A stretch of 64,000 bases of DNA from IMG/VR virus record IMGVR_UViG_3300020576_002722, positions 1 to 64,000 of that record. One strand, given 5' to 3'. The position numbers and the translations under genes were made by a program. This stretch comes from a virus. Its lineage: Duplodnaviria; Heunggongvirae; Uroviricota; Caudoviricetes. Numbering within the stretch: the stretch's first letter is position 1; each line of letters opens with the position of its first letter. Shown in pieces: positions 24,643 to 64,000 of the stretch. The notes under the pieces are model-generated. The model was not told the origin of the DNA. It did no database searches and saw nothing but the letters and a program-made list of their open reading frames with translations.

Positions 24643-24757
24643 CTATATGGCGGCGTAGCTAACCGCAAAGCTGGCAGATGTTGGGATGAACGCATATACT
24701 CCCGGCCCACGTTCAGAGATGCCACACAGCGCTGCTTTATTGACTCGGGCGCGAAAT

Positions 24758-25141: not shown

Positions 25142-25142
25142 C

Positions 25143-31606: not shown

Positions 31607-31990
31607 TCAGCGCCCGGATCGAGGGTAGAAGACCCCTTTCATGTAGTCGTTCACGTCTGTCATGAACTCCTCTAGGGAGCGGCATTCATAGACTATCCAT
31701 CCAGCCTCTGAGAACCTGATCTGCATCTCTTTCTGTGACTCGGATAGCTTGCCTTTGTCAGACTTCATCTCGATGGCCATGCCGCAGACGTGCGTATCTC
31801 CATACGTCCTGGGATGGCACACCAGGATATCAGGGACTCCGGCCAGTACCCCCATGTCCTTCCACAATTTCCCCATGTGTGGACTCCCGGCATCTCTGCC
31901 ATTGGGAGGGTGGAACGCCAGGACGTTAGGGTACTGTAACCGGAGCCACTTGATACACGCCTTCTGGAGCGCTTGTTCTGGACGCTTCAT
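31607..31990 (-). CDS. VRR-NUC domain nuclease (127 aa)
   Basis: Start refined to MKRPEQALQK (ATGA overlap with the RNA ligase stop). AIEMKSDKGKLSESQKEM and VLAGVPDILVCHP fit the PD-(D/E)xK VRR-NUC fold. Confidence 0.6.
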   Translation of the reverse strand: MKRPEQALQKACIKWLRLQYPNVLAFHPPNGRDAGSPHMGKLWKDMGVLAGVPDILVCHPRTYGDTHVCGMAIEMKSDKGKLSESQKEMQIRFSEAGWIVYECRSLEEFMTDVNDYMKGVFYPRSGR

Positions 31991-33063
31991 TCCTCGTACT
32001 TGAGAAGGAACTGAGGATTGATCGCCTTGAACGATATGCGTCCACGGGTCACCGTCTTGCCGGTGATGAAGGTCTCGGTCATCTCTTCCAGGCTGCGCAC
32101 CACGATCCCCTCGGCCCATACGTCGGGGTTGATGGCGCTCTTGCGGGTGGCGAAACCAACCAGCTCGTCAACACTGAGGGCACCAAGGGTGAGGCAGTCG
32201 ATGTACGGGACCATCTTCAGGTCCATCGATCCGAATGCGACTGCGGCATCGCTAGGCAGGTACGGCTTGCCGGCATCGATGTCGAACACGTTGAAGAAGA
32301 GAACCTTGCGGCCGGTCAGCTTGTACTTGTTGCCCTGGATCCCTTCGCCGATCAGCTCGCCCTGGATGGCGATGTTCTTGCCGTAGTCGCGGAGCTTCTG
32401 CTCGACGTTCATCTCTCGGGCGTACTGCCAGAACGCATTCCTTTCGTCCTCCTTCAGCTCCAGGTTGCGCGAGCAGACCCCGAACTCCCCGTTGTACAGG
32501 TAGAAGGTAGCGCTGCTGCCGTCCATCTTCTCGCGGATCTCCACCTGCGCTGCGGCGTACTTGTCCAGGATGCCTGGCATGTTCTGGATCCGCTCCTCGT
32601 CCGTCTTGTGGATGAAGGATGGGAAGTAGCCGCGCACGGTACCGCCCAGGCAGGCCGGGATGGCGGGCTCGTACTTGATGATGCCGAGCAGCTCTGTCAC
32701 ATCGTACCCTTCTGCTGACAAGCCCAAGGCTGCGAACAGCTCGTGCTCGGCCGTGATAACATCGGCAAGGATCGACACCGGCATCATCAGGCCCTGGGAT
32801 ACCTGTCCCTTGAGTTTGATGGTGCGCACACGCATGTGGCGTGGCTTCATGAACTCGAACTCTGGTCGGTCAGGAAGGATGCTGTCCGGCTCTATGAATA
32901 CGATCGAATCGCCAATTCTGTGTCCGGCATCGTTCCTGATCACGCACTTCCACCCCAATACGCTGGCTACGGACACTTCGTCGGCTCCGGGTATTGGCTG
33001 GATGTCAGAGATCGTCTGTATGCTTGCAAGTTTTCTGCTCATGATTTTGTGTTTGAGAGCCAT
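31987..33063 (-). CDS. ATP-dependent RNA ligase, DraRnl/Rnl5-like (358 aa)
   Basis: N-terminal MSRKLASIQTISDIQPIPGADEVSVASVLGWKCVI OB-like module and KMDGSSATFY nucleotidyltransferase motif I (KxDG). Confidence 0.65.
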   Translation of the reverse strand: MALKHKIMSRKLASIQTISDIQPIPGADEVSVASVLGWKCVIRNDAGHRIGDSIVFIEPDSILPDRPEFEFMKPRHMRVRTIKLKGQVSQGLMMPVSILADVITAEHELFAALGLSAEGYDVTELLGIIKYEPAIPACLGGTVRGYFPSFIHKTDEERIQNMPGILDKYAAAQVEIREKMDGSSATFYLYNGEFGVCSRNLELKEDERNAFWQYAREMNVEQKLRDYGKNIAIQGELIGEGIQGNKYKLTGRKVLFFNVFDIDAGKPYLPSDAAVAFGSMDLKMVPYIDCLTLGALSVDELVGFATRKSAINPDVWAEGIVVRSLEEMTETFITGKTVTRGRISFKAINPQFLLKYEE

Positions 33064-33458
33064 TCGATCGCTGATCGTAGGCGGTTAACGTCATCTTTCA
33101 AGTGGCCTATTCCCTTATTACAGGCAGAGCACAGGAGTCCCCTGACCCTACCGGTCTTGTGGTCGTGATCTACTGTCACTGTATCCATTGCTTGACCCTT
33201 GGTCTTTGTGGGCATCTTCATCTTGCACTTGCATATACCACACTCTCCGCGAAACGCCATCCACATGGCGTCAAACTCGCCCGGATCAAGCCCATACTTC
33301 TTGCTCAGGTGCCAGTTCCTGCGATATATGGATATGTCTGCATGTATGCGTCTATGCGATCCATTGCATTTGTAACAACGGACTGACTTATTTCCAGCCG
33401 TACCGGTTCCGCAGTCAATGCAGTGGCCTCTGATCCTACGCGTCTTGACTAACTCCAT
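33039..33458 (-). CDS. Endonuclease VII-like Holliday-junction resolvase (139 aa)
   Basis: GECGICKCKM...VTVDHDHKTGRVRGLLCSACNKGIGH matches the T4 endonuclease VII family signature. Low-GC island. Confidence 0.75.
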   Translation of the reverse strand: MELVKTRRIRGHCIDCGTGTAGNKSVRCYKCNGSHRRIHADISIYRRNWHLSKKYGLDPGEFDAMWMAFRGECGICKCKMKMPTKTKGQAMDTVTVDHDHKTGRVRGLLCSACNKGIGHLKDDVNRLRSAIEWLSNTKS

Positions 33459-33906
33459 TTGCTTCGTTGCGTAATGTATCCCTTCTCATGAACATGATGA
33501 TCCACGACTCCTGATCACCGTGCTTGCCAGATTCAAGATCCTCCCGGTTATTGTCATGCCAAGACTGGTGACAATGGCCGCAAACGATGCGGATATTCCG
33601 AGGATCCGTCTTGTAGTTCCTATACGTTCCCCTCTCAAGGAGGTGGGAGAAGTTGATCGGCTGCGGTGGATCGGATATTGGAATGCCGCATACCTCACAG
33701 CAGTGTTCCCGTAGGCCAAGATCATCACCGGTCTCCCAGATCTCCAGGGCTGCTTTCCACCAGCCCTTGTTTGATGGTGCCCTCTTCCGAAGTGGCTTCC
33801 TCTTGCTCTCCAGCTTCGACGCCTTCGTCACCAGGCCCCTCTTCATCATCTCCGTCAACGATGGCTTGGTGAACGGCTTCCTTGCGAGCTGCTTTTTCCT
33901 GAGCAT
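33436..33906 (-). CDS. HNH endonuclease (up to 156 aa; true start uncertain)
   Basis: CCEVCG...IVCGHCHQSWH HNH core. The N-terminal ~60 aa overlap the upstream gene out of frame. Confidence 0.55.
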   Translation of the reverse strand: MLRKKQLARKPFTKPSLTEMMKRGLVTKASKLESKRKPLRKRAPSNKGWWKAALEIWETGDDLGLREHCCEVCGIPISDPPQPINFSHLLERGTYRNYKTDPRNIRIVCGHCHQSWHDNNREDLESGKHGDQESWIIMFMRRDTLRNEANGVSQDA

Positions 33907-38687: not shown

Positions 38688-38688
38688 G

Positions 38689-38760
38689 AGGCCCCGCCAG
38701 GAGTCGAACCTGGATCTAGCGTTTAGGAAACGCTCGTTCTGTCCATTGAACTATGAGGCC
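38689..38760 (-). tRNA. tRNA-Arg (anticodon CCT)
   Basis: Reverse complement folds as a cloverleaf: acceptor GGCCTCA/CGGGGCC (one A-C mismatch at the stem base), D-arm GTTC-AATGGACA-GAAC, anticodon stem AGCGT/ACGCT with loop TTCCTAA, T-arm CCAGG-TTCGACT-CCTGG. Confidence 0.7.
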
Positions 38761-43941: not shown

Positions 43942-43970
43942 GTGTGTGTGTGTGTTGAGGATTGTACCTC

Positions 43971-44014
43971 GCGGGCCTCCCGGTCTCGAACCGGGAAGAC
44001 TGCCTGTGGCCCCG
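43971..44014 (-). ncRNA. tRNA-like minihelix element TL1
   Basis: T-arm CCCGG-UUCGAGA-CCGGG flanked by acceptor-like complementary ends. Sits between the 44019 stop and the parB-like start. Confidence 0.4.
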
Positions 44015-44018
44015 TTGA

Positions 44019-44288
44019 TCAGCTGAACAGCTCGTTCTTCAGCTCTTTGAGCATGGTCAGCCCCTTCTCCAAGCTGGCCACCTCGTCGAGCGCATCAATG
44101 ATGGCCGCCCCGGACAACGGCACGGCGGACTTCAGCGTGTTCACTTTGCGCTTCGCCGATGTGAGCGCCTTTTGGGTGGCCAGGATATCGCTGTCCAGTT
44201 GCAACGCTTGCTCGGCGTCCGTCTGAGCGAACTGCTCTGCCTCCACCACCGCCTTGTCCTTTGTCAGACTTTCCAGATACTTGCCCAT
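44019..44288 (-). CDS. Coiled-coil hypothetical protein (89 aa from MGKYLESL)
   Basis: Protein-like K/E-rich helical sequence. The frame opens exactly where the upstream gene's protein-like sequence degrades (see findings). Confidence 0.4.
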   Translation of the reverse strand: MGKYLESLTKDKAVVEAEQFAQTDAEQALQLDSDILATQKALTSAKRKVNTLKSAVPLSGAAIIDALDEVASLEKGLTMLKELKNELFS

Positions 44289-44751
44289 GTTGGGTTGTTG
44301 TTTGTTTGGTGGATGCAGGTCCACCGGCCTTTATCTTCTTGAAGCGTTCGGCAAACATACGCACACCGTTGCTTATCTCTATCAGAGACGGATCTCCGTT
44401 CACTCCGACACGAATGACGATGTCCATGTGTCCGACCACAGCCCTGCTATCCCCTGACTTATCAATGACTTCCACGGTATCGCCCACCCGTATCACGTCG
44501 TCCGTCTGATGGACGCCGATGCAGAAATGGGCCAACATCTGCTCCTTGGTCACCATAGGTCTGCTGTTCTTGGCGCAGTTCTCGATGGAGTCACCAGAAA
44601 GGCCGGCTGCCCACAGCATGAATATCGGATACGTTCCATCGGCGGTAATCGAGGTCATCGATGCCCCGGCGGCCTTGATCTGTCGGATGAACTCCATCCG
44701 CTCGGCCATATCGTCGATGCGTACGGCGCATCCATCGGGTAGCTTGCTCAT
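44095..44751 (-). CDS. Hypothetical protein (218 aa from MSKLPDGCAV); C-terminal ~60 aa look like out-of-frame junk
   Basis: N-terminal 150 aa are protein-like (..DDVIRVGDTVEVIDKSGDSRAVVGHMDIVIRVGVNGDPSLIEI..). Overlaps the 44019 gene by ~190 nt. Confidence 0.4.
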   Translation of the reverse strand: MSKLPDGCAVRIDDMAERMEFIRQIKAAGASMTSITADGTYPIFMLWAAGLSGDSIENCAKNSRPMVTKEQMLAHFCIGVHQTDDVIRVGDTVEVIDKSGDSRAVVGHMDIVIRVGVNGDPSLIEISNGVRMFAERFKKIKAGGPASTKQTTTQHGQVSGKSDKGQGGGGGRAVRSDGRRASVATGQRYPGHPKGAHIGEAQSEHAEVRRAVVRGGHH

Positions 44752-45096
44752 GTTCCTTGTGTGTGGGCACAAAAATGGGGAACCGTTTCCGATTCCCCAA
44801 ATCTGTGTGACGAATAGTTAAGGGCGGCCGCTCACTTCGCCCTCAGAAGGACATGCGCTTTCCGTACAGGACCAGATCGCCATTGTTGCGGATCAGGTTG
44901 CGCATGATCTCCTTCATGCGACCGGTGGGTGACTTTTTGCCATGCGTGCCAGTCCATTGTTCTACATGCCGCGCCCCGAACAGGTGCTATGACCTGTTCG
45001 CGAGCGAATGGATCCCTGACGGGGCGCGGGCTTATTGTAAGTTACGGCATTCACGAAGTACGGTCATAGCTCGGCAAATGTATGAACTATTCCGAA

Positions 45097-45432
45097 TCAG
45101 TCGTTGGGGTGTTTGAACGCGTTAGGGTCCTGTCCGGGACGTGTGATCGTATTGGTGCGCAGCACGAAGGCGTACACCGCACAGCCACCCACCGGAGTAA
45201 TGATGCCGTGCGACGTTATGGTGTACCCGTGGTCGAATGCCCACCGATAGATCACATCCAGTGAGTTCTCGTCCTCCGGGGTGAACGGAACCACCTCGCT
45301 GTACTCGAACCGGGCTACCTTGATGCGGACGCGCATCCCACGGCGTTCGGTCGGCTGCATGTACGTGCCGGTGGCCACCAGTGCGTTATTCTGGTGGTTG
45401 GCCCCTCGTTGTGTCATCCTGTTCTTTCTCAT
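45097..45432 (-). CDS. Hypothetical protein (111 aa from MRKNRMTQ)
   Basis: Start placed 10 nt downstream of the ATGTGA-loop hairpin, as for other genes in this cluster. Confidence 0.45.
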   Translation of the reverse strand: MRKNRMTQRGANHQNNALVATGTYMQPTERRGMRVRIKVARFEYSEVVPFTPEDENSLDVIYRWAFDHGYTITSHGIITPVGGCAVYAFVLRTNTITRPGQDPNAFKHPND

Positions 45433-45442
45433 TGTCGTTGAT

Positions 45443-45456
45443 GGCGATGTGACGCC
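45443..45456 (-). promoter_or_regulatory. Conserved-loop hairpin H1 (GGCG-AUGUGA-CGCC on + strand)
   Basis: 10 nt upstream of the 45432 start. Confidence 0.5.
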
Positions 45457-45459
45457 ATG

Positions 45460-45500
45460 TGCGCGTCCCGGAATCGAACCGGGACGTGAACCGTTCGCGC
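45460..45500 (-). ncRNA. tRNA-like minihelix element TL2
   Basis: GCGCG-AACGGUUCACGU-CCCGG-UUCGAUU-CCGGG-ACGCGC. No D or anticodon arm. Abuts the 45504 stop. Confidence 0.45.
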
Positions 45501-45503
45501 TTA

Positions 45504-45752
45504 CTATTCTTCGCCCTGAGCGATGACAGGGAGTCCGTGGAACGCTATGTCGTTCCGGTATGTTTCGAGCGCCTCTGCTATCGACCTGCATTCAGCGACG
45601 ACCCCCTCGGGGGTGTGCATGATAACGCGTCGGAAGCCCCTGGTGATGGCGATGCCTCGTAGCTGGCAGGCCAGCGACAGGGTGTCCCATTTGGTCCGGC
45701 GCGGGTCCTGCTGGGACTGGTGCCGGGTCATCGAGTGGTGCGCTGTGTACAT
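45504..45752 (-). CDS. Hypothetical protein (82 aa)
   Basis: TGATG coupling to the upstream gene. Stop abuts a tRNA-like element. Confidence 0.35.
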   Translation of the reverse strand: MYTAHHSMTRHQSQQDPRRTKWDTLSLACQLRGIAITRGFRRVIMHTPEGVVAECRSIAEALETYRNDIAFHGLPVIAQGEE

Positions 45753-45961
45753 CACTTTTCCTCGTTGTAGTGTGACTGTGCCCGTCGCAGCGCATCAGCG
45801 AAGTCCGTCTGAGCCTCATTGGTATCGCAGTAGTGCATCAGGTCGGCCAAGATGTCGCAAACCGTGTTGGCGTTGTCGTCGGCACCAAGTTCGGCCACAT
45901 ACGCATCGACCAGCTTGGCACCCATTGCCGCCCGGTCCTTGTTCGTTCTTTCGATGTCCAT
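45752..45961 (-). CDS. Small acidic hypothetical protein (69 aa from MDIERTNKD)
   Basis: Start preceded by the AACCAAUACCCAAAACAAC leader. Confidence 0.4.
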   Translation of the reverse strand: MDIERTNKDRAAMGAKLVDAYVAELGADDNANTVCDILADLMHYCDTNEAQTDFADALRRAQSHYNEEK

Positions 45962-45980
45962 GTTGTTTTGGGTATTGGTT

Positions 45981-46027
45981 TGAGCCTGCGGGCGGAATCG
46001 AACCGCCCTGAGTACTCCATTGCAGGC
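45981..46027 (-). ncRNA. tRNA-like minihelix element TL3
   Basis: GCCUGC-AAUGGAGUACUCA-GGGCGG-UUCGAUU-CCGCCC-GCAGGC-UCA. Confidence 0.45.
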
Positions 46028-46035
46028 TGCCGGGT

Positions 46036-46461
46036 CTACGACCACTCGGTGATCAGCGCCACTTTGTCGGCGTTCAGTCCCCACGTATTCGCCCGGTCGC
46101 GGAGCCTCGACTGGACCCCTTCTACCGTGCGCGACTGTTCGTATTCCTCGCCGGGTCCATCGTGCGCCGTTTGCATGTCCACGAAGAAATTCTGCGGCAA
46201 CACCGGCAGATAGTCCTTCGCAGCTTCATACACATCATCGTTGCGTATGAATGATGTGCCGCCGGAGTTCAACATCGAATCCAGCTTGACGGCCACATTA
46301 TCCGGCAACATGCAGCCGACGGCGCAGCTTGTTCCGCCCGGTCCACGATAGGCGCACCCTGTTGCTGGTGCCATTGCCCGACGCCTCTGCTTGGCCATGT
46401 GTTCGACGATGAAGTCGAACGTTTGCTGCATGTCCATCTTCTTGATATCCTCCGTGTTCAT
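46036..46461 (-). CDS. Hypothetical protein (141 aa)
   Basis: Start 11 nt after the hairpin (GCACAUGAACA-AUG). Confidence 0.5.
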   Translation of the reverse strand: MNTEDIKKMDMQQTFDFIVEHMAKQRRRAMAPATGCAYRGPGGTSCAVGCMLPDNVAVKLDSMLNSGGTSFIRNDDVYEAAKDYLPVLPQNFFVDMQTAHDGPGEEYEQSRTVEGVQSRLRDRANTWGLNADKVALITEWS

Positions 46462-46472
46462 TGTTCATGTGC

Positions 46473-46488
46473 GGGCAATGTGATGCCC
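46473..46488 (-). promoter_or_regulatory. Conserved-loop hairpin H2 (GGGCA-AUGUGA-UGCCC)
   Basis: 11 nt upstream of the 46461 start. Confidence 0.5.
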
Positions 46489-46491
46489 TGT

Positions 46492-46530
46492 GCTGCCCCC
46501 GGAATCGAACCGGGGGAGAACCATTGCAGC
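46492..46530 (-). ncRNA. tRNA-like minihelix element TL4
   Basis: GCUGC-AAUGGUUCU-CCCCCGG-UUCGAUU-CCGGGGG-CAGC. Abuts the 46531 stop with a 0-nt gap. Confidence 0.45.
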
Positions 46531-47022
46531 TTACAGGTCGAGTGCGTCGATGCGCCCCACCATCTTGCGGGCCTTGGCGATGTCGCCCACCGTGGCCGTG
46601 CAGTGTACCAGATGCTCGGTGAGCACCTCGATCATGTCGCGGGCCTCGCGCAGCACACCGGACACCGTCTCGAAGTCCACGGGGACATCTTCGGACTCTT
46701 CCATCCATGCCGTCTCCACATACTGCTGCTGGCCGTACGTGATCACGCCCAAGCTCACCAAGAGCTTCAGCGCGTCGTGGATGTTGTTGAAGCCCCTGAT
46801 GGCCTGCACTCGTCCATCCACGCTGCCGTACACGGTCCAGAACACGCTGTTTGCTGGCGCATCCTCTGGAGGCTCGACGCCGTTGAGCGGTTGCGTATCG
46901 GTGCCGTCATCCATGCACAGGGAAAGCTCGTACGAGTTGAATGTACCGACATTGGAGGTGTCCTTCGTGAACAGCCACCGGTCGGGGCGCTTCTCGTCGT
47001 GCATCCGTTCTACTTTGGTCAT
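46531..47022 (-). CDS. Hypothetical protein (163 aa from MTKVERMHDE)
   Basis: Start refined using the hairpin-spacer rule. Stop directly abuts a tRNA-like element. Confidence 0.5.
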   Translation of the reverse strand: MTKVERMHDEKRPDRWLFTKDTSNVGTFNSYELSLCMDDGTDTQPLNGVEPPEDAPANSVFWTVYGSVDGRVQAIRGFNNIHDALKLLVSLGVITYGQQQYVETAWMEESEDVPVDFETVSGVLREARDMIEVLTEHLVHCTATVGDIAKARKMVGRIDALDL

Positions 47023-47034
47023 TGGTTCATGGTA

Positions 47035-47052
47035 GCGCAATGTGATGCGCTG
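47035..47052 (-). promoter_or_regulatory. Conserved-loop hairpin H3 (AGCGCA-AUGUGA-UGCGCU)
   Basis: 12 nt upstream of the 47022 start. Confidence 0.5.
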
Positions 47053-47121
47053 GTGGAGCCGGGGGAATCGAACCGCCCGCGAATGCGCTCTACTTGCTGC
47101 GCAAGGGTACCATAGCTCCAC
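47053..47121 (-). ncRNA. tRNA-like element TL5 (near full length, non-canonical)
   Basis: Perfect 7-8 bp acceptor GUGGAGC/GCUCCAC, 3' CCAG, T-loop GGUUCGAUUCC. The 35-nt insert does not fold into canonical D and anticodon arms. Confidence 0.4.
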
Positions 47122-47128
47122 GCCTTCT

Positions 47129-47884
47129 TCACGATAGCCTGTTGGCGCTCGATGTTGCACCGGACACCGGCCTATTGAAATTCACATTGTCTCCAGCAGA
47201 ACGACCGGAGTTGTAGGCATCCCTGCTTCCTGCGTGTCTGCGGCTTGTCGTGGTCCGCAGCTTCACCCCAAGGTCGCCCAGATACTTCTTGTACTTCTGG
47301 ACGGTCACATTGCTCTTCACGACCATAATGGCCGTGCATGAGTTGCCCTCTGCCGCCTTTCGCTCTGCCACCATGCGACGTAGTCGTTCGGCGATACGTG
47401 ATCCCATGCCGAGCATGAACGAGGCACGCAGAGTACGACCGTGCATACTGGTACCGCCATCTCGTTTGAGGCGCTTCAATTCAGCCTGCTTCAGCTTCCA
47501 CGCCTGCTCCATAGCTCCCTGTATCATGTCGCACAGGTAGAAGGCCATCTCGGTGTCTTTGGCGGTTCCGAAGTATAGCATTTCGCCGTTGTACCACTTC
47601 GTCACCTTGGTATCGGTGAACTCGGAAATGGCAACGGAGCACGAGTTTACCACCTCAGGCCACCTGTTCATATTCACGCCCGTGGCGTACGGACGCTTTC
47701 GGGCACCGTACTGGTCACCCATGATGGACGCCTCGTCCATAGTGATGTTGTATTCGCGGATAAGGGAGTCCAACTTCTGTGCTGCCGCGATGGCCTCTGC
47801 CTCAGTGCAACCGTTGCTAACGGTACGCGCCTGAAGCTCCCGGATGATGCGGGCTATCCGCTCCCGATTAACGTTCTGTTCCAT
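47129..47884 (-). CDS. DUF2786-like phage protein (251 aa)
   Basis: N-terminal IARIIRELQARTVSNGCTEAEAIAAAQKLDSLIREYNI pattern typical of the DUF2786 family. Inference from memory. Confidence 0.45.
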   Translation of the reverse strand: MEQNVNRERIARIIRELQARTVSNGCTEAEAIAAAQKLDSLIREYNITMDEASIMGDQYGARKRPYATGVNMNRWPEVVNSCSVAISEFTDTKVTKWYNGEMLYFGTAKDTEMAFYLCDMIQGAMEQAWKLKQAELKRLKRDGGTSMHGRTLRASFMLGMGSRIAERLRRMVAERKAAEGNSCTAIMVVKSNVTVQKYKKYLGDLGVKLRTTTSRRHAGSRDAYNSGRSAGDNVNFNRPVSGATSSANRLS

Positions 47885-47895
47885 TGTTCATGTGT

Positions 47896-47913
47896 ATACC
47901 CATGTGAGGGTAT
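47896..47913 (-). promoter_or_regulatory. Conserved-loop hairpin H4 (AUACCC-AUGUGA-GGGUAU)
   Basis: 11 nt upstream of the 47884 start (ACACAUGAACA-AUG). Confidence 0.5.
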
Positions 47914-47916
47914 TGG

Positions 47917-47971
47917 AACGGTGGATGGTGTCGATCCATCAGCACGCGTGCTCACCGGCCGGGGCACCGTT
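47917..47971 (-). ncRNA. tRNA-like element TL6 (variant T-loop AUCGACA)
   Basis: 7-bp acceptor AACGGUG/CACCGUU followed by CCA. T-arm GAUGG-AUCGACA-CCAUC. 23-nt insert with palindromes. Confidence 0.35.
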
Positions 47972-47977
47972 CAGGTA

Positions 47978-48370
47978 TTACATTAGGCCCAGACCACGCA
48001 GGGCGCTCATATCCTTGTCGAAGCTCGCCGGCCACTTCACCGTGGACAGGTCGCGCACGAACGTCGACGCCTCCGCGTCAAGGAACAGGCACCCACCGAT
48101 GGACACCTTGAATGGGTTCGGTTGCAGCCCGTTCCACGCTGCGAACGCCAGAGGGTCACTCATGGCGCTCGGAGCCTTCTTCAGTAGCCGCATGTGCTTC
48201 TGTGGCCCGACCTTGTAGAAGGCCCTCTGGATGGCGTCCAGATGCGTCTGCGGGATGTCGCACCCGTGCTGCGCCTTGTGGATGTCCTTGGCCACGTTCT
48301 GGGCCAGTTGCAGTGCGGTCATACGTTGGACCTTGTCGGCGTGCTCTGCGTACGCCTTCGCTGTGCTCAT
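47978..48370 (-). CDS. Hypothetical protein (130 aa)
   Basis: Start preceded by the ACAAACCAAUACAACCACAGAACA leader. Confidence 0.5.
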   Translation of the reverse strand: MSTAKAYAEHADKVQRMTALQLAQNVAKDIHKAQHGCDIPQTHLDAIQRAFYKVGPQKHMRLLKKAPSAMSDPLAFAAWNGLQPNPFKVSIGGCLFLDAEASTFVRDLSTVKWPASFDKDMSALRGLGLM

Positions 48371-48394
48371 TGTTCTGTGGTTGTATTGGTTTGT

Positions 48395-48434
48395 GCCCGC
48401 CGTGGAATCGAACCACGGCGTGAACCGTTCGGGC
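48395..48434 (-). ncRNA. tRNA-like minihelix element TL7
   Basis: GCCCG-AACGGUUCAC-GCCGUGG-UUCGAUU-CCACGGC-GGGC. Overlaps the 48434 stop by 1 nt. Confidence 0.45.
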
Positions 48435-48538
48435 TACTGGTCGGCCAGTGTCTGGTCGTCGGGCCGCTGTTGCGACCGCTTCTGTTCAGCCTTGCGGCGT
48501 TCGTGCTCTTCGCGGAGCACCTGTGTGTAGTGCGTCAT
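48434..48538 (-). CDS. Possible micro-ORF (34 aa, MTHYTQVLREEHERRKAEQKRSQQRPDDQTLADQ)
   Basis: ATG 2 nt after the upstream stop. The longer ORF-track frame is GC junk. Weak. Confidence 0.2.
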   Translation of the reverse strand: MTHYTQVLREEHERRKAEQKRSQQRPDDQTLADQ

Positions 48539-48540
48539 AG

Positions 48541-48765
48541 TCAGTTCAGGGTGAGTCGTGGTACTACAACGAAGGCCCCCAGTTCCCGGTGGAACACGTA
48601 GCGTGCCCCGATAGTGGAGCACAGGCATACACGGCCCTCGGCCATCAGTACCCGTGCATAGGTGGGCACCTTGTCGATGGGGTCGAGTCGTAGGCACCCG
48701 TCTATCAGGTGCCCGTCAAGGTCGTGGGCCAGCGCTGCGGCCCGCTCTTGGTCCTTGGTATTCAT
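48541..48765 (-). CDS. Small hypothetical protein (74 aa)
   Basis: Start 10 nt after hairpin H5. Confidence 0.4.
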   Translation of the reverse strand: MNTKDQERAAALAHDLDGHLIDGCLRLDPIDKVPTYARVLMAEGRVCLCSTIGARYVFHRELGAFVVVPRLTLN

Positions 48766-48775
48766 TCGTCAGTGG

Positions 48776-48793
48776 ACGGCAATGTGATGCCGT
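48776..48793 (-). promoter_or_regulatory. Conserved-loop hairpin H5 (ACGGCA-AUGUGA-UGCCGU)
   Basis: 10 nt upstream of the 48765 start. Confidence 0.5.
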
Positions 48794-48796
48794 TGT

Positions 48797-48838
48797 GCGC
48801 GGGCAGGGAGTCGAACCCCGCCCTCGGACCATCCGCGC
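48797..48838 (-). ncRNA. tRNA-like minihelix element TL8
   Basis: GCGCGG-AUGGUCCGA-GGGCGGGG-UUCGACU-CCCUGCCC-GCGCA. Confidence 0.4.
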
Positions 48839-48840
48839 TG

Positions 48841-49122
48841 TTACTTCCACACTTCCGCCACCACCTCAGGTGGCGCATCCTCGGTCGCCCTGCACATTTC
48901 CCAACCAGTGGTGCTCAGGATGGCTTGGCCGTACTTCTCGTCGCACTTGACACTGACCACTTGCCCTTGGTGTACCGGGTTGGACCCATAGGCCGACGGA
49001 TACGCCTCAAAAGCCTCGCCATCGCGAGCTATCAGGATGGCGTGCCTCAGGCCGAACGAATTGGTGTTGGTGGACAAGATGGCCACCTTGAACTCCTTAC
49101 GGAGCATGGATGTCTGGTTCAT
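48841..49122 (-). CDS. Hypothetical protein (93 aa from MNQTSMLRKE)
   Basis: ATGA overlap with the upstream zinc-ribbon gene. The N-terminal part of the ORF-track entry is out-of-frame junk. Confidence 0.45.
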   Translation of the reverse strand: MNQTSMLRKEFKVAILSTNTNSFGLRHAILIARDGEAFEAYPSAYGSNPVHQGQVVSVKCDEKYGQAILSTTGWEMCRATEDAPPEVVAEVWK

Positions 49123-49268
49123 CGCTTTGCTGGTGTTGGTTTCTTCTCGGTGTAGAACATCATCCCGCACTGGTAGCAGCGGAAATGGATGATGGTGCCC
49201 ATGAGTCCCATAGGCGCGTTGGTCGTGCTGCACATGGGGCAGCTACGGCGTACTCGTTGCCATGCCAT
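49119..49268 (-). CDS. Zinc-ribbon micro-protein (49 aa, MAWQRVRRSCPMCSTTNAPMGLMGTIIHFRCYQCGMMFYTEKKPTPAKR), not in the ORF track
   Basis: CPMC...CYQC. Start exactly 10 nt after hairpin H6. ATGA overlap with the next gene. Confidence 0.4.
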   Translation of the reverse strand: MAWQRVRRSCPMCSTTNAPMGLMGTIIHFRCYQCGMMFYTEKKPTPAKR

Positions 49269-49278
49269 TGTCTGTTGG

Positions 49279-49294
49279 TCGCAATGTGATGCGA
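49279..49294 (-). promoter_or_regulatory. Conserved-loop hairpin H6 (UCGCA-AUGUGA-UGCGA)
   Basis: 10 nt upstream of the 49268 micro-ORF start. Confidence 0.5.
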
Positions 49295-49296
49295 TG

Positions 49297-49342
49297 ATCG
49301 CTGTCTGGACTCGAACCAGATGTCCCGCCTATCGGGCAGCGA
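49297..49342 (-). ncRNA. tRNA-like element TL9 (acceptor + mini-hairpin + T-arm)
   Basis: UCGCUG-CCCG-AUAGG-CGGG-ACA-UCUGG-UUCGAGU-CCAGA-CAGCGA. Confidence 0.4.
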
Positions 49343-49376
49343 AGGGTGCGCTACGTCCTTGGTGGCGCGGTATTGG

Positions 49377-49763
49377 TCAGCCTTGGTTCACCGGCTGAAG
49401 GTGTGCGTTCAGTGTGCGGCCATCGGGCATCAGGAAGAATTGCGGGTTGAACTCGCCCCACTTCTCAGCTTGCGGGCCAACGAGGTAGCCCTTGCCGCCC
49501 CGGTTCCAGTACACGGCGATGGCCTCTTGTCCGAGGGTTTCAGACAACCGGTGGACAAGTGTCTCTTCAACGGCATTCCACCCGGCAGCGCCAACCTCCA
49601 CTACCATCGTCGGTTCGGTGTTGCTGTTTATCGGGCCGTGAAAGGTGAGCGGAGCGTGGATGCCTGTGTCGGTCGGATACGTCCTTCGCACCGCATCCAT
49701 TACCTGTTCTACGGTATTGGTTCCGCCGTCCGGCCTGTTGAGGCCGATGTTGAGTGTGAACAT
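49377..49763 (-). CDS. Hypothetical protein (128 aa from MFTLNIGLNR)
   Basis: Start set by the hairpin H7 + 11-nt spacer rule. The longer frame would run through the hairpin and tRNA-like element. Confidence 0.45.
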   Translation of the reverse strand: MFTLNIGLNRPDGGTNTVEQVMDAVRRTYPTDTGIHAPLTFHGPINSNTEPTMVVEVGAAGWNAVEETLVHRLSETLGQEAIAVYWNRGGKGYLVGPQAEKWGEFNPQFFLMPDGRTLNAHLQPVNQG

Positions 49764-49774
49764 TGCTTGGGGAT

Positions 49775-49788
49775 GTCCATGTGAGGAC
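49775..49788 (-). promoter_or_regulatory. Conserved-loop hairpin H7 (GUCC-AUGUGA-GGAC)
   Basis: 11 nt upstream of the 49763 start. Confidence 0.5.
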
Positions 49789-49794
49789 ATTGTG

Positions 49795-49868
49795 GACCGT
49801 ACGGGAGTCGAACCCGCCGTCAAACCCCACCCGGGGCGGCCCTGTATTGCTCCACGGCTCAGTACGTC
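49795..49868 (-). ncRNA. tRNA-like element TL10 (near full length, non-canonical)
   Basis: Acceptor GACGUAC/GUACgGUC, T-arm GCGGG-UUCGACU-CCCGU. The 42-nt insert has irregular arms. Confidence 0.35.
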
Positions 49869-49877
49869 TTTTGAGGG

Positions 49878-50114
49878 TCAAGCTGCGTCGGGCCCTGAAG
49901 GCATTTCTACCACTTCCTCGTCCCATGTTTCTACCTCGGCCTCGGTGTCTTGGGTGAACTTACCCACGTCTGCAAGGTATTCCGCGCCTGCGGCAAGATT
50001 CTCCTTCAGTTCTTGGATGGATGCCCCGTTCATGGTGTATTCCACCTCGATAGTCAGTCTCAGTTTAGCGGTCTTCATGTTCGTGCTATGCTTAGCGCTT
50101 GTCTTGATATCCAT
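49878..50114 (-). CDS. Acidic hypothetical protein (78 aa)
   Basis: Start 9-10 nt after hairpin H8. Confidence 0.45.
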   Translation of the reverse strand: MDIKTSAKHSTNMKTAKLRLTIEVEYTMNGASIQELKENLAAGAEYLADVGKFTQDTEAEVETWDEEVVEMPSGPDAA

Positions 50115-50123
50115 GGCCTTGAT

Positions 50124-50141
50124 AGCGCAATGTGATGCGCT
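50124..50141 (-). promoter_or_regulatory. Conserved-loop hairpin H8 (AGCGCA-AUGUGA-UGCGCU)
   Basis: 9-10 nt upstream of the 50114 start. Same stem sequence as H3. Confidence 0.5.
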
Positions 50142-50659
50142 GCCTGTCCACCGGGCATCGCTCCCGGACCTCGTTGGCGGTTAATTACTCCGCCACGTTG
50201 CGCTTCATTAGCTGAACAGGTTGTGCGATGTTTCCGTTATCGTGCATCGCCTCACTGGCCCTTTCATGAGGTGGAGCCATACCCGGTGGCGCATTACGGT
50301 GCGCTCTACCTGCGCCCCCTATCCCGCATCGAAGCGGGTGGCCACGTAGTGACGGTGGTCGCGTCCTGCTAGGGGGTATAGTTCCAAGATGTCAAAGAAC
50401 GCGCTCTAGGTCACACCGCACCGTGTTTCTCGGTACAGTCCCGTTCCCAGCGGCCTTCCTACGGGCCATCGCGGCTAGTAGTTTCGGCACCACATCATGT
50501 GGCTGCTGGTCAGTGCGTTACGTGTGAAAGAACGACGCCTAGCTTGGTGGCCCTCACGGGTGACTGTTGCCGAACGCGATGCAAGTGTAGGCTGCCGCAT
50601 GGCCACCGACCTAATTTCCAGTGACGAACGGTTGGGAACGGGACGAACGGTTGGCCAGA

Positions 50660-50890
50660 CTAGGTGGCTTGATCGCCTGGAGGCCGCGATACTGTAGGCC
50701 AGAACGACATCTTGTAGCCAAGTAGCTGCAAATAGGCTTGGAGCGTAGACATGGACGTGGTAAGCACGTTGGCTTCGAGCCTGGCCACGGTCACTGGCTT
50801 CACCCCGATGCGTTCGGCCACGTCCGCTTGTGACCACCCGAGCCGCCTGCGTTTGGCGATCACAAAGTTGTCCATCTTGCGCCTGGCCAT
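50660..50890 (-). CDS. XRE/Cro-CI-family helix-turn-helix transcriptional regulator (76 aa from MARRKMDNF)
   Basis: LGWSQADVAERIGVKPVTVARLEANV is a classic HTH_3 motif. The upstream part of the ORF-track entry is junk. Confidence 0.6.
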   Translation of the reverse strand: MARRKMDNFVIAKRRRLGWSQADVAERIGVKPVTVARLEANVLTTSMSTLQAYLQLLGYKMSFWPTVSRPPGDQAT

Positions 50891-51159
50891 GCCCCAAAGG
50901 TAAGCGGCCACGCGGATACGGTGATCACGCTGCCCATGCGATAGCGATAGGAGCGGATAGCCCGCAGCCCGAAGGGCGAGGACTATGAGCGGATAGCGCG
51001 GGCCGAAGGCATCGCCCAAAGGATGGAAGCACTCTACTACAAGAGAGAGAACATGCTGGTGATCAGGCTGTTGGACCGGTAACACGTAGACACATAGCCA
51101 TATCACTATGTGTAAGCCCTTTCTCGGGGACAATAGGTGAACGCGTGCGCGTGGTGATC

Positions 51160-60749: not shown

Positions 60750-61204
60750 AGTTTCCAGAGATTCTTCTCAAAGGTATCAGGAATCCTGAAGTCGATGATC
60801 TCTCGGACCACGTTCCAGTTGAGGCCACCCAGGTGGCATCCGATCAATGGGAAGTTGATCGCAAGTGTTCCGTCGATCGCAGCCAAGACGGCTACCTGTT
60901 GCATACACGCATCCATCGCATCGTAACTCGCATACTTCCTCCCGTCCTTTCCGTAGAACTCCTGCGTGAAGCAGTTCATGACGATCGTGTTGTCGCTGCC
61001 GAACAGATGTACCTCTTGAACGTCACCAAGCAAGTGGCCTCCAGGTCTCTTGGACGCAACATGCTTCAAGTACTCAGTGAACACTTTGGGCCACTTGTTC
61101 CGGATGGCGAGCGCCACACCAGATCCCATCACGCCTTGGGTATTAACCCCGTGCAGGATGATGCCTTTCGCGGTGAGAAGGTCACCCTTGATCTCGTTGA
61201 TCAT
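60746..61204 (-). CDS. Macro domain protein (ADP-ribose-binding or ADP-ribosylhydrolase-like, 152 aa)
   Basis: GDLLTAKGIILHGVNTQGVMGSGVALAI matches the macro-domain G-rich phosphate-binding motif. Confidence 0.7.
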   Translation of the reverse strand: MINEIKGDLLTAKGIILHGVNTQGVMGSGVALAIRNKWPKVFTEYLKHVASKRPGGHLLGDVQEVHLFGSDNTIVMNCFTQEFYGKDGRKYASYDAMDACMQQVAVLAAIDGTLAINFPLIGCHLGGLNWNVVREIIDFRIPDTFEKNLWKL

Positions 61205-61986
61205 TTGAAGTAGGAGTCGATGCGTTCGCGGATCTCCCTCATGCTTCCAGCCCTAGTGATCACCCCGTCAGCGAACACCACATCGAAGGCGCAGTCGTGA
61301 ACATCTTCCCATGATGCCTGCTCCTGCAATAGGAACCCGTGATCGTGGTCGTGGTGTACAGCCAGGAGCCCCTTGGCGCTGTTCTTTCCACCATTGTCGG
61401 TCTTCGGCTTCTTGAAGATCTCGCGAGGCTTGTAGTTCACCACTCCGTAGGTGGCCTTGATCGCCATGCCGTAGGTGTCACGGGTCACATACTGGTACGT
61501 GTAGCTGCCGATGCCGAACACGACATTGGTGCTGGCGAACCCTTTCGCGATCAGCCTGTCGACGATCTTCTGGGCACGCTCCGGGGTGATGCTGTCTCCG
61601 TAGATGGCACCGATATGCGGGTCGAGAACCTTGAATCCCTTCTCGTTCACGGTACCTCCGAAGGTGTTCCATAGGCACTCAATGAGCCCTTTGCCCTCTG
61701 GGGTCATCTTGGTAAAGGTTCTAGTACCAGGAAGATGGTATCCGCACAGGATGTCCACCGGATCCCCGCTGTCTGGCCTGATCACCACCTTGCCTTCACG
61801 ATTCATGATCTCTGATTTCAGGGCCGGCAGATACTCGGTGACCACCTTCCAGAAGTCCCATGTGTCGCTGACGATGCTGATGATCCCGGACGGATGTACC
61901 TCAGTGATCAGGCGCTTGAAGTGGAGAAATTCCCCTCTTGTAAGTCTCTCTTCTTCAGAGAGTTTCCTTGTCCGTGTTTTCTTCAT
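61201..61986 (-). CDS. nadV: Nicotinamide phosphoribosyltransferase, C-terminal half (separate ORF, 261 aa)
   Basis: IVSDTWDFW, VIRPDSGDP, IYGDSIT and VVFGIGSYTYQYVTRDTYGMAIKATYGVVN align with the C-terminal catalytic half of NAMPT. Confidence 0.8.
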   Translation of the reverse strand: MKKTRTRKLSEEERLTRGEFLHFKRLITEVHPSGIISIVSDTWDFWKVVTEYLPALKSEIMNREGKVVIRPDSGDPVDILCGYHLPGTRTFTKMTPEGKGLIECLWNTFGGTVNEKGFKVLDPHIGAIYGDSITPERAQKIVDRLIAKGFASTNVVFGIGSYTYQYVTRDTYGMAIKATYGVVNYKPREIFKKPKTDNGGKNSAKGLLAVHHDHDHGFLLQEQASWEDVHDCAFDVVFADGVITRAGSMREIRERIDSYFK

Positions 61987-62012
61987 ACTTTTGCTGTCGT
62001 TAACATGACCCT

Positions 62013-62675
62013 ATGATCGGGACAAAGATATGCTCCAGATGCAAGGATCGAAAGGTTCTTGACGAATTTCCAGTGAACTCCAGGTTCCCGGACGGAAGGA
62101 ACTCCAAATGCAAGCTCTGTACGAACGCACTGAACAAGGCTTACAGGGACTCCAATAAGGAGGCATTCTGCGCATCCAGGAGAAGGCACTACATAGCAAA
62201 CCTGGAGAAGATGCGATCTGGAAGGCGAAAGTACGCCGCATCCAACAAGGACAAAAAGAGCCAGTATGATGTATCGTACAGGGCTCAAAACAAATCCAAA
62301 ATAGCGGCCTACAAGAAACAGTGGGAAAGGAACCTCATGAGTGACCCTGTGTTCAGGATCAAGAGAAACCTTCGCCGCAGGATTAGTCACGTCCTTAACG
62401 GAAGACTGAAGACGGCAGATACGTTCAGCCTCGTTGGATGTACGCCGTCCGAGTTCAGGGACCACATTCAGTCCCAATGGACCGAAGGGATGTCCTGGGA
62501 TAACTACGGATACCGTGGATGGCATGTTGATCATGTGATACCGTGCTGCTCATTTGATCTGTCTACCGAGGATGGCCAGAGAAGGTGTTTTCACTTCAGC
62601 AACCAAAGGCCGCTATGGGCATTAGACAACCTTCGGAAGGGCAGGAAGATCCCTGACCCACTTCCATTGTCCTGA
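62013..62675 (+). mobile_element. HNH homing endonuclease gene (220 aa) on the strand opposite to the nadV gene it splits
   Basis: CSRCKDRK and CKLC zinc knuckles. GYRGWHVDHVIPCCSF...NQRPLWALDNLRKG HNH core. AT-rich relative to flanks. Its 3' end overlaps the nadV N-half tail by 54 nt. Confidence 0.75.
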
Positions 62676-63452: not shown

Positions 63453-64000
63453 ATCTCTGTGCGGTTGATGCGTGATTCGTCGATACTGTCGAGCATGAAC
63501 GAGTTGGTCGTGTAGATGGCGTCGATTCCGTCGTTCAGCAATACGTCTAGGCCGTGCGTGAAGAGGCCGTGCGTGGCGCATAGGATGACCTTCTGGGCTC
63601 CGGCGTACTTCAGCTTCTTGGACAGCTCGATGAACGTCCTTCCTCCGTCGCAGATGTCGTCGACGATGATGACATCCTTATTGAGTAGGTCTGCTCCCAT
63701 GATCGCACCTGGGATCACTTTTCCGTCCTCCCTCCTCTTCGTCGTGAAGCAGATGCCATTGGTGTTGCCAACTGCGGCCGACATCAGGTCCACGCGCTTC
63801 ATGGCACCCAAGTCTGGTGCGCAGAACACAGCGTCAGGATACGCGGCCTTCGCAGCCATGACGTGGCCGACGAACCGCATGGTCGTGTAGTTGTCGATCA
63901 GCGCCGGCATCACATCGCTGTGCGGATCCAATGACATCACGCTCGTGTACCCCTGCGCATTGATCAACTTAGCCATGACCGACGCCGACAGGGCCTCCCC
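63449..64000 (-). CDS. prs: Ribose-phosphate pyrophosphokinase (PRPP synthetase), 5'-partial at the window edge
   Basis: VIIVDDICDGGRT PRPP-binding loop. Aligns with the C-terminal two-thirds of Prs. Frame stays open to the window end. ATGA-coupled to nadV. Confidence 0.8.
   Translation of the reverse strand, partial: GEALSASVMAKLINAQGYTSVMSLDPHSDVMPALIDNYTTMRFVGHVMAAKAAYPDAVFCAPDLGAMKRVDLMSAAVGNTNGICFTTKRREDGKVIPGAIMGADLLNKDVIIVDDICDGGRTFIELSKKLKYAGAQKVILCATHGLFTHGLDVLLNDGIDAIYTTNSFMLDSIDESRINRTEI

Follow-up and report, generated by a model that had tools for sequence, protein, structure and literature searches.

In animal mitochondria, the genes of a polycistronic transcript are separated by tRNAs that are excised by RNase P and RNase Z, and stop codons can abut these tRNAs. 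The early polycistronic transcript of phage T7 is cut by host RNase III at intergenic structures, which yields stable monocistronic mRNAs ending in hairpins. In plant mitochondria, t-elements carrying the sequence GGTTCRANYCC guide cleavage by RNase P and RNase Z, which generates mRNA ends; their role in defining these ends is proposed and partly shown, and some begin within the end of a reading frame (PMC1920247). Here we describe ten tRNA-like elements (TL1 to TL10), each about 40–70 nucleotides (nt) long, that lie between small genes on the minus strand at 43.97–49.87 kb of a 64,000-nt stretch of Caudoviricetes DNA (IMG/VR record IMGVR_UViG_3300020576_002722, positions 1 to 64,000; hereafter the window). 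As in t-elements, a T arm with the sequence GGTTCRANYCC is combined with an acceptor-like stem in a tRNA-like fold. Structure and tRNA mimicry we regard as near certain. With a confidence slightly better than even, we propose that this mimic of the tRNA elbow directs host RNase Z and/or RNase P to punctuate a polycistronic early mRNA.

Fold and covariation of the elements

The motif GGTTCGAWTCC, with at most one mismatch, occurs 11 times in the window compared with 2.66 ± 1.65 times in shuffled sequences (0 of 100 shuffles reached 11). Three of these occurrences belong to real tRNAs and eight to spacers of the array, at 45.47–49.81 kb on the minus strand; the T loops of TL1 (TTCGAGA) and TL6 (ATCGACA) are more degenerate. 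Reading of the sequence and its coordinates placed all ten elements where the initial annotation had put them. The T stems differ between copies and remain complementary over 5–8 base pairs (bp), and an acceptor-like stem, with a complementary 5′ strand and a 3′ strand continuous with the T stem, is present in ten of ten elements, both as had been claimed. The T arm, which had been described as near-consensus for a tRNA, keeps the conserved motif, but its stem is typically 6 bp and not 5. A descriptor scan that required a T arm and an acceptor with its 3′ strand contiguous with the T stem recovered nine of the ten; TL5 was missed solely for one T-stem mismatch.

Six elements (TL1, TL2, TL3, TL4, TL7 and TL8) are compact, with an acceptor of 5–7 bp, a spacer of 10–13 nt, a T stem of 6 bp, the loop UUCGAUU or a near variant of it and a total length of 39–46 nt; the spacer reads AAYGGUUCNNN in most. 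Written as acceptor / spacer / T arm / acceptor, and all on the minus strand, these are TL1 (43973–44012; GGGCC / ACAGGCAGUCU / UCCCGG-UUCGAGA-CCGGGA / GGCCC), TL2 (45461–45500; GCGCG / AACGGUUCACG / UCCCGG-UUCGAUU-CCGGGA / CGCGC), TL3 (45983–46028; AGCCUGC / AAUGGAGUACUCA / GGGCGG-UUCGAUU-CCGCCC / GCAGGCU), TL4 (46492–46530; GCUGC / AAUGGUUCUC / CCCCGG-UUCGAUU-CCGGGG / GCAGC), TL7 (48395–48434; GCCCG / AACGGUUCACG / CCGUGG-UUCGAUU-CCACGG / CGGGC) and TL8 (48797–48838; GCGCGG / AUGGUCCGAGG / GCGGGG-UUCGACU-CCCUGC / CCGCGC, with one G.U pair).

The other four (TL5, TL6, TL9 and TL10) have the compact frame with an insert or a small hairpin in the spacer. TL5 and TL10 had been set apart as nearly full-length; this class did not hold up, because all four extended elements are the same minihelix with additions. 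TL5 (47053–47121, minus strand) has a 7-bp acceptor, GUGGAGC/GCUCCAC, one mismatch in its T arm and a 26-nt insert. TL6 (47916–47972, minus strand) has an 8-bp acceptor, GAACGGUG/CACCGUUC, a 24-nt spacer with a small hairpin and the T arm GAUGG-AUCGACA-CCAUC. In TL9 (49298–49342, minus strand), the acceptor UCGCUG/CAGCGA and the T arm UCUGG-UUCGAGU-CCAGA flank the spacer hairpin CCCGauagGCGGG. The fold of TL10 (49792–49868, minus strand; T arm GCGGG-UUCGACU-CCCGU at 49801–49817) is ambiguous, with three options for the acceptor: GACGUAC/GUAC(G)GUC in the minimum-free-energy fold, which starts at 49868, GUGGA/UCCAC as in the initial annotation, and GGGCCG/CGGUCC (49842–49794) with the spacer hairpin CCCCggguGGGG. 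The middle part of the spacer is dispensable, since the variant contig L121 carries a compact TL5 (5577–5617) without the 26-nt insert. An alignment of all ten elements by MAFFT misaligned the four extended ones and was discarded.

The small genes g0 to g15 follow one another on the minus strand at 43.9–49.9 kb, separated by spacers of about 70–120 nt. A start 0–9 nt past a stop codon, as had been reported for every element, applies to eight of the ten; TL9 begins 34 nt and TL10 10 or 35 nt (depending on the fold) past the stop. TL4 directly follows the UAA of g8, TL2 directly follows the UAG UAA stops of g11, and the final G of the UAG that ends g5 doubles as the first G of TL7.

Covariance models recover the compact class. 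The first model (R1) was seeded with five compact window copies and one variant copy from L121, leaving out TL8. Searched against the whole window with filters off, the models found TL1, TL2, TL3, TL4, TL7 and TL8 at E values of 1e-6 to 1e-13, TL8 scoring 29.4 bits with R1 and 41 bits with R2. Elsewhere in the window there was only a weak match (25.5 bits with R2, E 2e-4), within an odd tRNA gene at 24379–24449 on the plus strand.

None of the known classes that we searched accounts for the elements. Misreading of full-length tRNAs, which the initial annotation had named as a way in which it could be wrong, can be set aside: ARAGORN and Rfam at gathering score gave no tRNA or tmRNA (transfer-messenger RNA) at 43.9–49.9 kb, a relaxed Rfam run gave sub-threshold matches only, with no RF00005 match there even at E values up to 10, and no window element yielded a cloverleaf by ARAGORN or RF00005. 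The only Rfam near-matches reflect tRNA likeness: tmRNA, for which ARAGORN made no call and the best RF00023 match reached 13.2 bits against a gathering score of 47, and mascRNA-menRNA (RF01684), whose gathering score is 42.5 and which matched TL8 only, at 18.6 bits. No Rfam 15 family matched, seven loci with about 40 copies also gave none, and no C4 match was found here. Applied to the elements of 24 related loci, ARAGORN made no call other than a tRNA-Leu, which is a false model match, and a doubtful tRNA-Phe (L082). No element qualifies as an intrinsic terminator; ACA or CAA follows the elements, not U runs. Full-text literature, with subscription-only papers outside the search, gave no account of such elements in phages, and tRNA-like candidates are mentioned only in general terms in a large survey of putative structured RNAs from viruses (PMC10690425). 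The earlier impression that no phage gene cluster with this arrangement had been described thus stands for the literature and Rfam, although the arrangement itself proved widespread and not peculiar to this phage.

Across phages, 84 model matches reduce to 68 distinct sequences. In these 68 copies, 99.1% of stem cells in the alignment are standard pairs, and 10 of the 11 pairs change on both sides, over 325 cells. Covariation in the alignment scores 1.045, whereas shuffles give 0.18 ± 0.016 and sliding of the partners gives no more than 0.20; RNAalifold independently predicts the same two helices. Both helices covary among paralogues within the array, among orthologues in variant phages and among unrelated phages, so that the RNA structure, not a DNA sequence site, is under selection, as had been supposed; presence and covariation in homologous phages, on which the initial annotation had staked its reading, were both found. 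A strand test based on the asymmetry of G.U was dropped, as 8 G.U against 3 A.C cells were too few. The GG of the spacer is present in 67 of 68 copies, and the T loop and the G53–C61 pair are near-invariant. With the acceptor extended outward, the coaxial helix measures 11 bp in 23 copies, 12 in 27, 13 in 15 and 14 in 3, compared with 12 in tRNA. The discriminator base is A in 35 copies and C in 23 (58 of 68 together).

Position and strand are equally regular. The elements begin −2 to +13 nt from a stop codon, with the next start codon 20–45 nt onward; 47 of 68 copies have a same-strand open reading frame (ORF) of at least 35 codons that ends within this −2 to +13 nt interval, and for random positions the figure is 10.7%. 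Wherever a locus has two or more copies (17 loci), all of them lie on one strand.

It is hardly conceivable that the elements are functionless remnants, either decayed tRNA genes or attP-like tRNA 3′ fragments left by integration. The window phage does carry real tRNA genes, at 24379–25142 on the plus strand and at 38688–38760 on the minus strand, together with the odd tRNA-like gene, and tRNA fragments are common in prophage regions (PMC9897764). A compact design with an acceptor of 5–7 bp, an AAYGG spacer of 10–11 nt, a T stem of 6 bp and compensated substitutions, however, recurs in many unrelated phages, its spacer constant in length and motif and its placement regular and strand-specific. 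Decay of tRNA genes, one of the two origins first considered, is contradicted by the constancy of this design across phages of different bacterial phyla, because independent decay would not yield one shared design. The presence of the 5′ acceptor strand in ten of ten elements, unlike in attP fragments, and the absence of an integrase from the window reject an attP-type 3′ fragment. The odd tRNA itself is called ‘tRNA-???’ by ARAGORN and scores 45.8 bits with the Rfam tRNA model; its acceptor, D and T arms are normal, its anticodon arm is CCCC-gacc-GGGG with a 4-nt loop, and it probably cannot decode. A weak tRNA-like fold at 25145–25219 (plus strand) lies directly after a tRNA-Gly.

Distribution and cassette exchange

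The module is widespread. The pattern GGTTCW-N(4-7)-GGTTCGAWTCC pulled in 119 IMG/VR loci, which were model-searched in two batches and gave more than 70 matches, arranged as single-strand arrays: 10–14 copies in L091, 7–8 in L020 (58% GC), 4–5 in L025 (42% GC), five and four in the marine L094 and L082 (38% GC) and several each in L073, L116 and others. Contigs bearing the element span 38–65% GC, and it is always on the coding strand. No cultured relative was found for L020 or L025. A further IMG/VR scan, for elements of the ‘ACAA’ type, gave 49 loci, of which 47 were model-searched and nearly all confirmed. Homologues of the ParB-like protein encoded by g15 led to 80 IMG/VR loci with only three isolated minihelices (L190, L191 and L184), and the locus of a 47%-identical homologue (L130) has no elements. 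Some candidates were rejected: the model match in L154 is part of a real tRNA-Leu, that in L208 is not a T-loop hairpin, and a pattern scan of a genome collection returned mostly genuine tRNA of Dyadobacter and Runella, from which only the covariance model sorted real elements.

Cultured phages are among the carriers. L091 is 100% identical to Mycobacterium phage Cuke, and Fowlmouth, MrMiyagi, Indlulamithi and the Papyrus/Send513 group share parts of the Cuke region. The GenBank records of Cuke and Fowlmouth list only small hypothetical coding sequences there, and the elements are unannotated. Between Cuke and Fowlmouth orthologues the stem changes are compensated, and cassettes differ between conserved modules. 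In Cuke (L214; NC_048696, 26242–40224; Fowlmouth is L215, NC_048734), the annotated starts of gp43 (6188), gp44 (6420) and gp52 (9823) overlap elements at 6195–6234, 6478–6517 and 9804–9848; Cuke and Fowlmouth starts that run through elements were probably called too far upstream. Prophage-like regions of Glycomyces carry arrays of two or three elements. Among Bacteroidota, carriers comprise Tannerella, Dysgonomonas, Parabacteroides, Bacteroides, Paludibacteraceae, Prolixibacteraceae, Epilithonimonas and Moheibacter; these copies, in prophages that look Mu-like, are directly followed by ‘ACAAA...’, with the ATG 14–25 nt downstream, in the leader style of TL3 and TL7 (see below). The gene downstream of the Bacteroidota copies often encodes a protein of 660–730 amino acids that, judged by eye, looks like a Mu-type transposase. 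In the prophage-like regions L261, L269, L294, L254 and L224 (Bacteroidota and Bdellovibrionales), a single minihelix lies 14–25 nt upstream of a protein of this size, which by eye resembles a Mu-type DDE transposase.

Close variants of the window phage differ by whole cassettes. Its ParB-like protein is 100% identical on 21 metagenomic contigs, and the DNA of L120–L122 is 92–99.9% identical to the window, with small-gene arrays of different content. The stretch g7-TL5-g8-TL4 is missing from L120, where three other genes lie between TL9 and TL7; in L121, g0 comes after g1-TL9 instead, a new 231-amino-acid gene is present, and two modules adjoin with no gene between them (6941–7148). The breakpoints coincide with the 5′ or the 3′ edge of an element or lie in the conserved leader immediately preceding the ATG. 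Insertion, deletion and permutation of cassettes can be followed in L120 6193–6905 and L121 4835–7888 against window 46031–50079, the sequences coming from different metagenomes. The orthologous elements are themselves compensated: between the window and L120, TL9 changes its T stem from UCUGG/CCAGA to CCCGG/CCGGG and its spacer hairpin from CCCG/CGGG to GCCG/CGGC, both fully compensated, and in L121 the TL3 orthologue keeps its acceptor while the T stem GGGCGG/CCGCCC becomes GCGGUG/CACCGC, fully paired.

Variation by whole cassettes with breakpoints at module edges, the relocation of g0 in L121 and the cassette differences between Cuke and Fowlmouth would fit a role at the level of DNA, with the elements acting as attC-like recombination sites at cassette borders or as repeats that promote exchange. 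As the primary function we consider this very improbable. Pfam scans of essentially all window ORFs revealed no integrase or recombinase, including none of the IntI type, and no common recombinase is evident across the differing carrier phages. The attC core sites (RYYYAAC / GTTRRRY) were not seen by eye in the alignment, no separate attC model having been run; the near-invariant positions are the GG of the spacer and GGTTCGATTCC, which belong to the T-loop/D-loop tertiary fold of tRNA and not to an attC core. Shuffling is more likely a consequence than a function, because repeats with 75–82% identity would passively favour such exchange.

Hairpins, transcription unit and proposed processing

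A second hairpin, unreported in the initial annotation, lies 1–4 nt past the discriminator base in eight of the ten elements; its stem of 4–6 bp covaries, and its loop is UCACAU in seven of the eight and UACAAU in that of TL1. Numbered after their elements and all on the minus strand, these hairpins are HP1 (43957–43970; GAGG-UACAAU-CCUC, 2 nt past TL1), HP2 (45441–45458; AUGGCG-UCACAU-CGCCAU), HP4 (46473–46488; GGGCA-UCACAU-UGCCC), HP5 (47034–47051; AGCGCA-UCACAU-UGCGCU), HP6 (47896–47913; AUACCC-UCACAU-GGGUAU), HP8 (48776–48793; ACGGCA-UCACAU-UGCCGU), HP9 (49279–49294; UCGCA-UCACAU-UGCGA) and HP10 (49773–49790; AUGUCC-UCACAU-GGACAU), the last lying 1 nt past TL10 and ending 9 nt before the start of g1 (49763). 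An eighth UCACAU hairpin, identical to HP5, is found at 50124–50141 on the minus strand, its end 9 nt short of the ATG of g0 (50114); upstream of it, at about 50150–50170 on the same strand, lies a possible degenerate T arm, CCGGGagcgaugCCCGG. UCACAU hairpins with a stem of at least 5 bp thus number eight, all on the minus strand at 45.4–50.2 kb; the sole other one in the window has 4 bp and is on the plus strand. The start codon comes 8–12 nt past the second hairpin, in the context acaAUG. TL3 and TL7 have no second hairpin and are followed instead by an unstructured leader of the type (A)CAAACCAAUAC..., which runs as CAAACCAAUAC...AUG after TL3 and as ACAAACCAAUAC...AUG after TL7. Of the 68 copies in the family, 53 have a hairpin that starts 0–6 nt past the discriminator.

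The array appears to be a single transcription unit. A gene for a Cro/CI-like HTH_3 protein (50660–50908, minus strand) heads the leftward operon that carries it, and in the sense direction the cro-like gene is followed by small accessory genes and then by replication genes. The sole strong intrinsic terminator on this strand at 43.0–51.8 kb, a 10-bp stem followed by UUUUU (44771–44799, minus strand), probably marks the end of the unit. TL1 falls in the next unit, past the terminator, between g14 and the ParB-like g15 downstream of it. Promoter-like sites were not found between the cassettes, and a sigma-70 scan showed no enrichment, although the promoter type of the host is perhaps not covered by it. 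Pfam left all array genes as ORFans except g7 (DUF7168/DUF2786), the g7 protein has no relative in IMG/VR, and megablast of the array region against INPHARED gave no close relative.

Each element mimics the acceptor/T-arm half of a tRNA, including the elbow. A continuous coaxial helix of 11–13 bp (65 of 68 copies) carries a canonical T loop, UUCGAUU, closed by G53–C61, and the GG of the spacer can stand in for G18–G19 of the D loop. In the model that we propose, tRNA-maturation endonucleases of the host recognize this mimic. RNase Z would cut just past the discriminator base, and RNase P might cut at the 5′ end of the acceptor stem, freeing a minihelix of about 40 nt; the polycistronic transcript would be severed at every module. 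The downstream message would then start 1–4 nt before a stable hairpin, which would shield the new 5′-monophosphate end; for TL3, TL7 and the prophages of Bacteroidota, its first part would instead be a short unstructured leader rich in A and C. The upstream message would be left with the G+C-rich minihelix as a 3′ cap or, if RNase P cuts, with an end immediately after its stop codon. In this way, every cassette of one or two genes would be an autonomous, context-independent unit of expression.

Several observations agree with this model. A 3′ cut of the RNase Z type fits because no CCA is encoded after the elements, nor after tRNA-Phe, the one phage tRNA whose 3′ flank was read. The acceptor end and the elbow are read jointly mainly by RNase P, RNase Z and the CCA-adding enzyme, and in the 5′-end-dependent decay by RNase E and RNase J a hairpin near the 5′ end protects the message. 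The Pfam scans found no gene for RNase P, RNase Z or a CCA-adding enzyme among the window ORFs, which implies a host factor, and this factor would have to be universal, because the module is common to phages with unrelated genes and with hosts of different phyla. Self-contained expression cassettes also fit the observed cassette shuffling.

Other points weigh against processing. We infer cleavage by RNase P, RNase Z or RNase E wholly from tRNA mimicry, and recognition by RNase P or RNase Z cannot be assumed, because a T stem of 6 bp and a helix often of 11 bp differ from the 7+5 of tRNA. The acceptor overlaps the stop codon by 1–2 nt in 8 of 68 copies, including TL7; here RNase P would remove part of the stop codon, which disfavours a 5′ cut or the need for one, and such a cut would also leave the upstream mRNA without a 3′ structure. 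The second hairpin of a few contigs has a U run after it and looks like an ordinary terminator. Folding energies of single sequences are unexceptional (z +0.6 to −1.5). The alignment underlying the pair counts was fitted to the model. Most IMG/VR loci were chosen by a pattern that includes GGTTC and the T loop, so that the conservation of these positions is partly ascertained; no such selection on the spacer applied to the remaining copies of these arrays or to the sets obtained through ParB and from genomes. The terminator-like second hairpins follow elements at L033 7901–7940, L056 5751–5789, L087 797–837 and L072 942–981, where the minihelix would sit at the very 3′ end of the transcript.

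The overlap with stop codons, which fits a 5′ cut poorly, is more easily accommodated if the elements are uncleaved RNA insulators or stabilizers, or sites for another elbow-binding host factor such as the CCA-adding enzyme, TruB/TrmA, EF-Tu or, on the ribosome, the L1 stalk or E site. The fold and the hairpin would then block exonucleases and uncouple the translation of neighbouring cassettes, or would recruit a factor to the gene start. Stable G+C-rich helices do lie directly upstream of start codons, and the Bacteroidota elements are 14–25 nt upstream of the ATG in genes without a Shine–Dalgarno sequence. We nevertheless hold this to be unlikely: a simple stabilizer needs no invariant T loop, spacer GG or helix of tRNA length, the factors that read acceptor end and elbow are mainly processing and CCA enzymes, and the same module occurs in hosts with and without Shine–Dalgarno usage.

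If processing freed the minihelices, they might, possibly after addition of CCA, act as decoys for toxins or enzymes that target the acceptor end or elbow of tRNA. Defence toxins that target tRNA exist, up to 10–14 copies lie in one early operon, and the window phage has genes predicted to be of counter-defence type (RNA ligase, Acb2/Tad1-like, Macro, MazG-like and NAMPT/NAPRTase). This seems quite improbable to us, as the stems vary freely and there is no anticodon arm, so that only generic acceptor-end or elbow toxins could be decoyed; strict intergenic placement and the paired hairpin or leader point to a role in cis, and many prophages have only one or two copies. A broader proposal, that the module is a general phage invention, serving in cis as a plug-and-play insulator that works through RNase P/Z and drives cassette shuffling, and in trans as a source of CCA-added minihelix decoys early in infection, we regard as improbable. 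The preferred reading remains punctuation of the transcript by host tRNA-maturation enzymes.

Several further features of the window, a phage-like genome segment of about 58% G+C, stand beside this argument. The 330 nt between g12 and the terminator (44770–45100, minus strand) contain no convincing ORF; they fold at −125.7 kcal/mol (z = −4.3), with a long hairpin CCGCGCCCCG...CGGGGCGCGG, and may correspond to a structured non-coding RNA in which the array operon ends. An apparently non-coding leader of about 520 nt (50142–50660, minus strand) extends from the stop of the cro-like gene to the first UCACAU hairpin and g0; L120 and L121 diverge from the window within it, the break lying near 50300. 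Shine–Dalgarno sequences are not visible anywhere in the window. C/A-rich tracts (cacacacacacATG, caaacaacaacccaacATG) precede start codons, often with an A at −3 (for example 4159, 5820, 14094, 22766, 43941 and 44288). The ACAAA-type leaders after TL3 and TL7, together with the lack of Shine–Dalgarno sequences, suggest a host among the Bacteroidota despite the 58% G+C; tblastn with the DnaB-like protein as a guide to the host gave only weak matches, at 23–28% identity. An RNA ligase (PF09414 with the PHA02142 OB fold) is encoded at 31987–33063 and NAMPT/NAPRTase genes at 61201–63581, all on the minus strand; Acb2/Tad1-hairpin, Macro, MazG-like and Metallophos domains are also among the scanned ORFs, and from their domains such genes are putatively of counter-defence or RNA-repair type. 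An Endonuclease VII domain is at 33039–33458 and an HNH domain at 33436–33906. A 2753-amino-acid ORF in the structural region (5820–14081, plus strand) matches no Pfam family above threshold.

Comparison with known systems

If the proposed processing is correct, host tRNA-maturation enzymes serve many phages of Actinobacteria, Bacteroidota and marine bacteria in the processing of early operons, a strategy so far documented for organelles and a few eukaryotic RNAs. The elements would add a large, easily recognized family of RNAs that Rfam 15 does not contain and that GenBank records, for example that of Cuke, leave unannotated; they would correct gene-start calls that run through them, and would explain the regular gaps of about 90 nt in arrays of small ORFans and the evolution of such arrays by cassette exchange. 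The proposal is directly testable, as the cultured members Cuke and Fowlmouth grow on M. smegmatis.

Among phage systems, the RNase III sites of T7 are likewise intergenic RNA structures in an early operon; they differ in being long, irregular hairpins that are cut by another enzyme and have no likeness to tRNA. Integron attC sites require the IntI integrase and consist of a fold of single-stranded DNA with conserved core sites. The phage array shares with them a structured, variable repeat right after the stop codon of a promoterless cassette, a single orientation and the shuffling of cassettes; no IntI, single-stranded DNA fold or core sites were seen here, and the conserved positions are those of the tRNA T loop. 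TMERs (tRNA-microRNA-encoded RNAs) of murine gammaherpesvirus 68 are eukaryotic Pol III transcripts, and tRNA–guide RNA arrays are products of engineering; in both, the units are complete cloverleaf tRNAs or tRNA-like genes. The phage module resembles them in that a tRNA-like unit is followed at once by a hairpin or cargo, released there by RNase Z, and it would be a natural counterpart to engineered tRNA-based multiplexing. The MALAT1-derived mascRNA and its MEN-beta relative (RF01684) are also non-decoding tRNA-like structures, at which RNase P makes the upstream 3′ end and RNase Z frees the small RNA; they differ in being eukaryotic and nuclear, single-copy and cloverleaf-shaped. Bacterial RNase P cleaves the C4 antisense RNA of phages P1 and P7, the M3 RNA of phi80 and polycistronic mRNAs (PMC11143913). 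C4 and M3 are, like the elements described here, phage transcripts with features of an acceptor and T arm, but they are single regulatory RNAs and not repeated intergenic modules.

The closest counterparts are organellar. As in mitochondrial punctuation, tRNA-shaped units stand between the genes of one transcript; unlike the functional tRNAs of mitochondria, the phage elements are without D and anticodon arms and cannot decode. With t-elements they share a non-decoding nature, the T-arm motif with an acceptor-like stem and a location beside coding regions (PMC1920247). Whereas t-elements are few, mixed in form, cloverleaf-like and organellar, the phage family consists of a uniform minihelix of about 40 nt whose T stem has 6 bp and whose spacer reads AAYGG; its arrays comprise up to 10–14 copies, and it is paired with a downstream hairpin. 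We therefore place the elements as a compact, arrayed, phage-borne family of what would be the tRNA-like processing-signal type, present in phages of several bacterial phyla.

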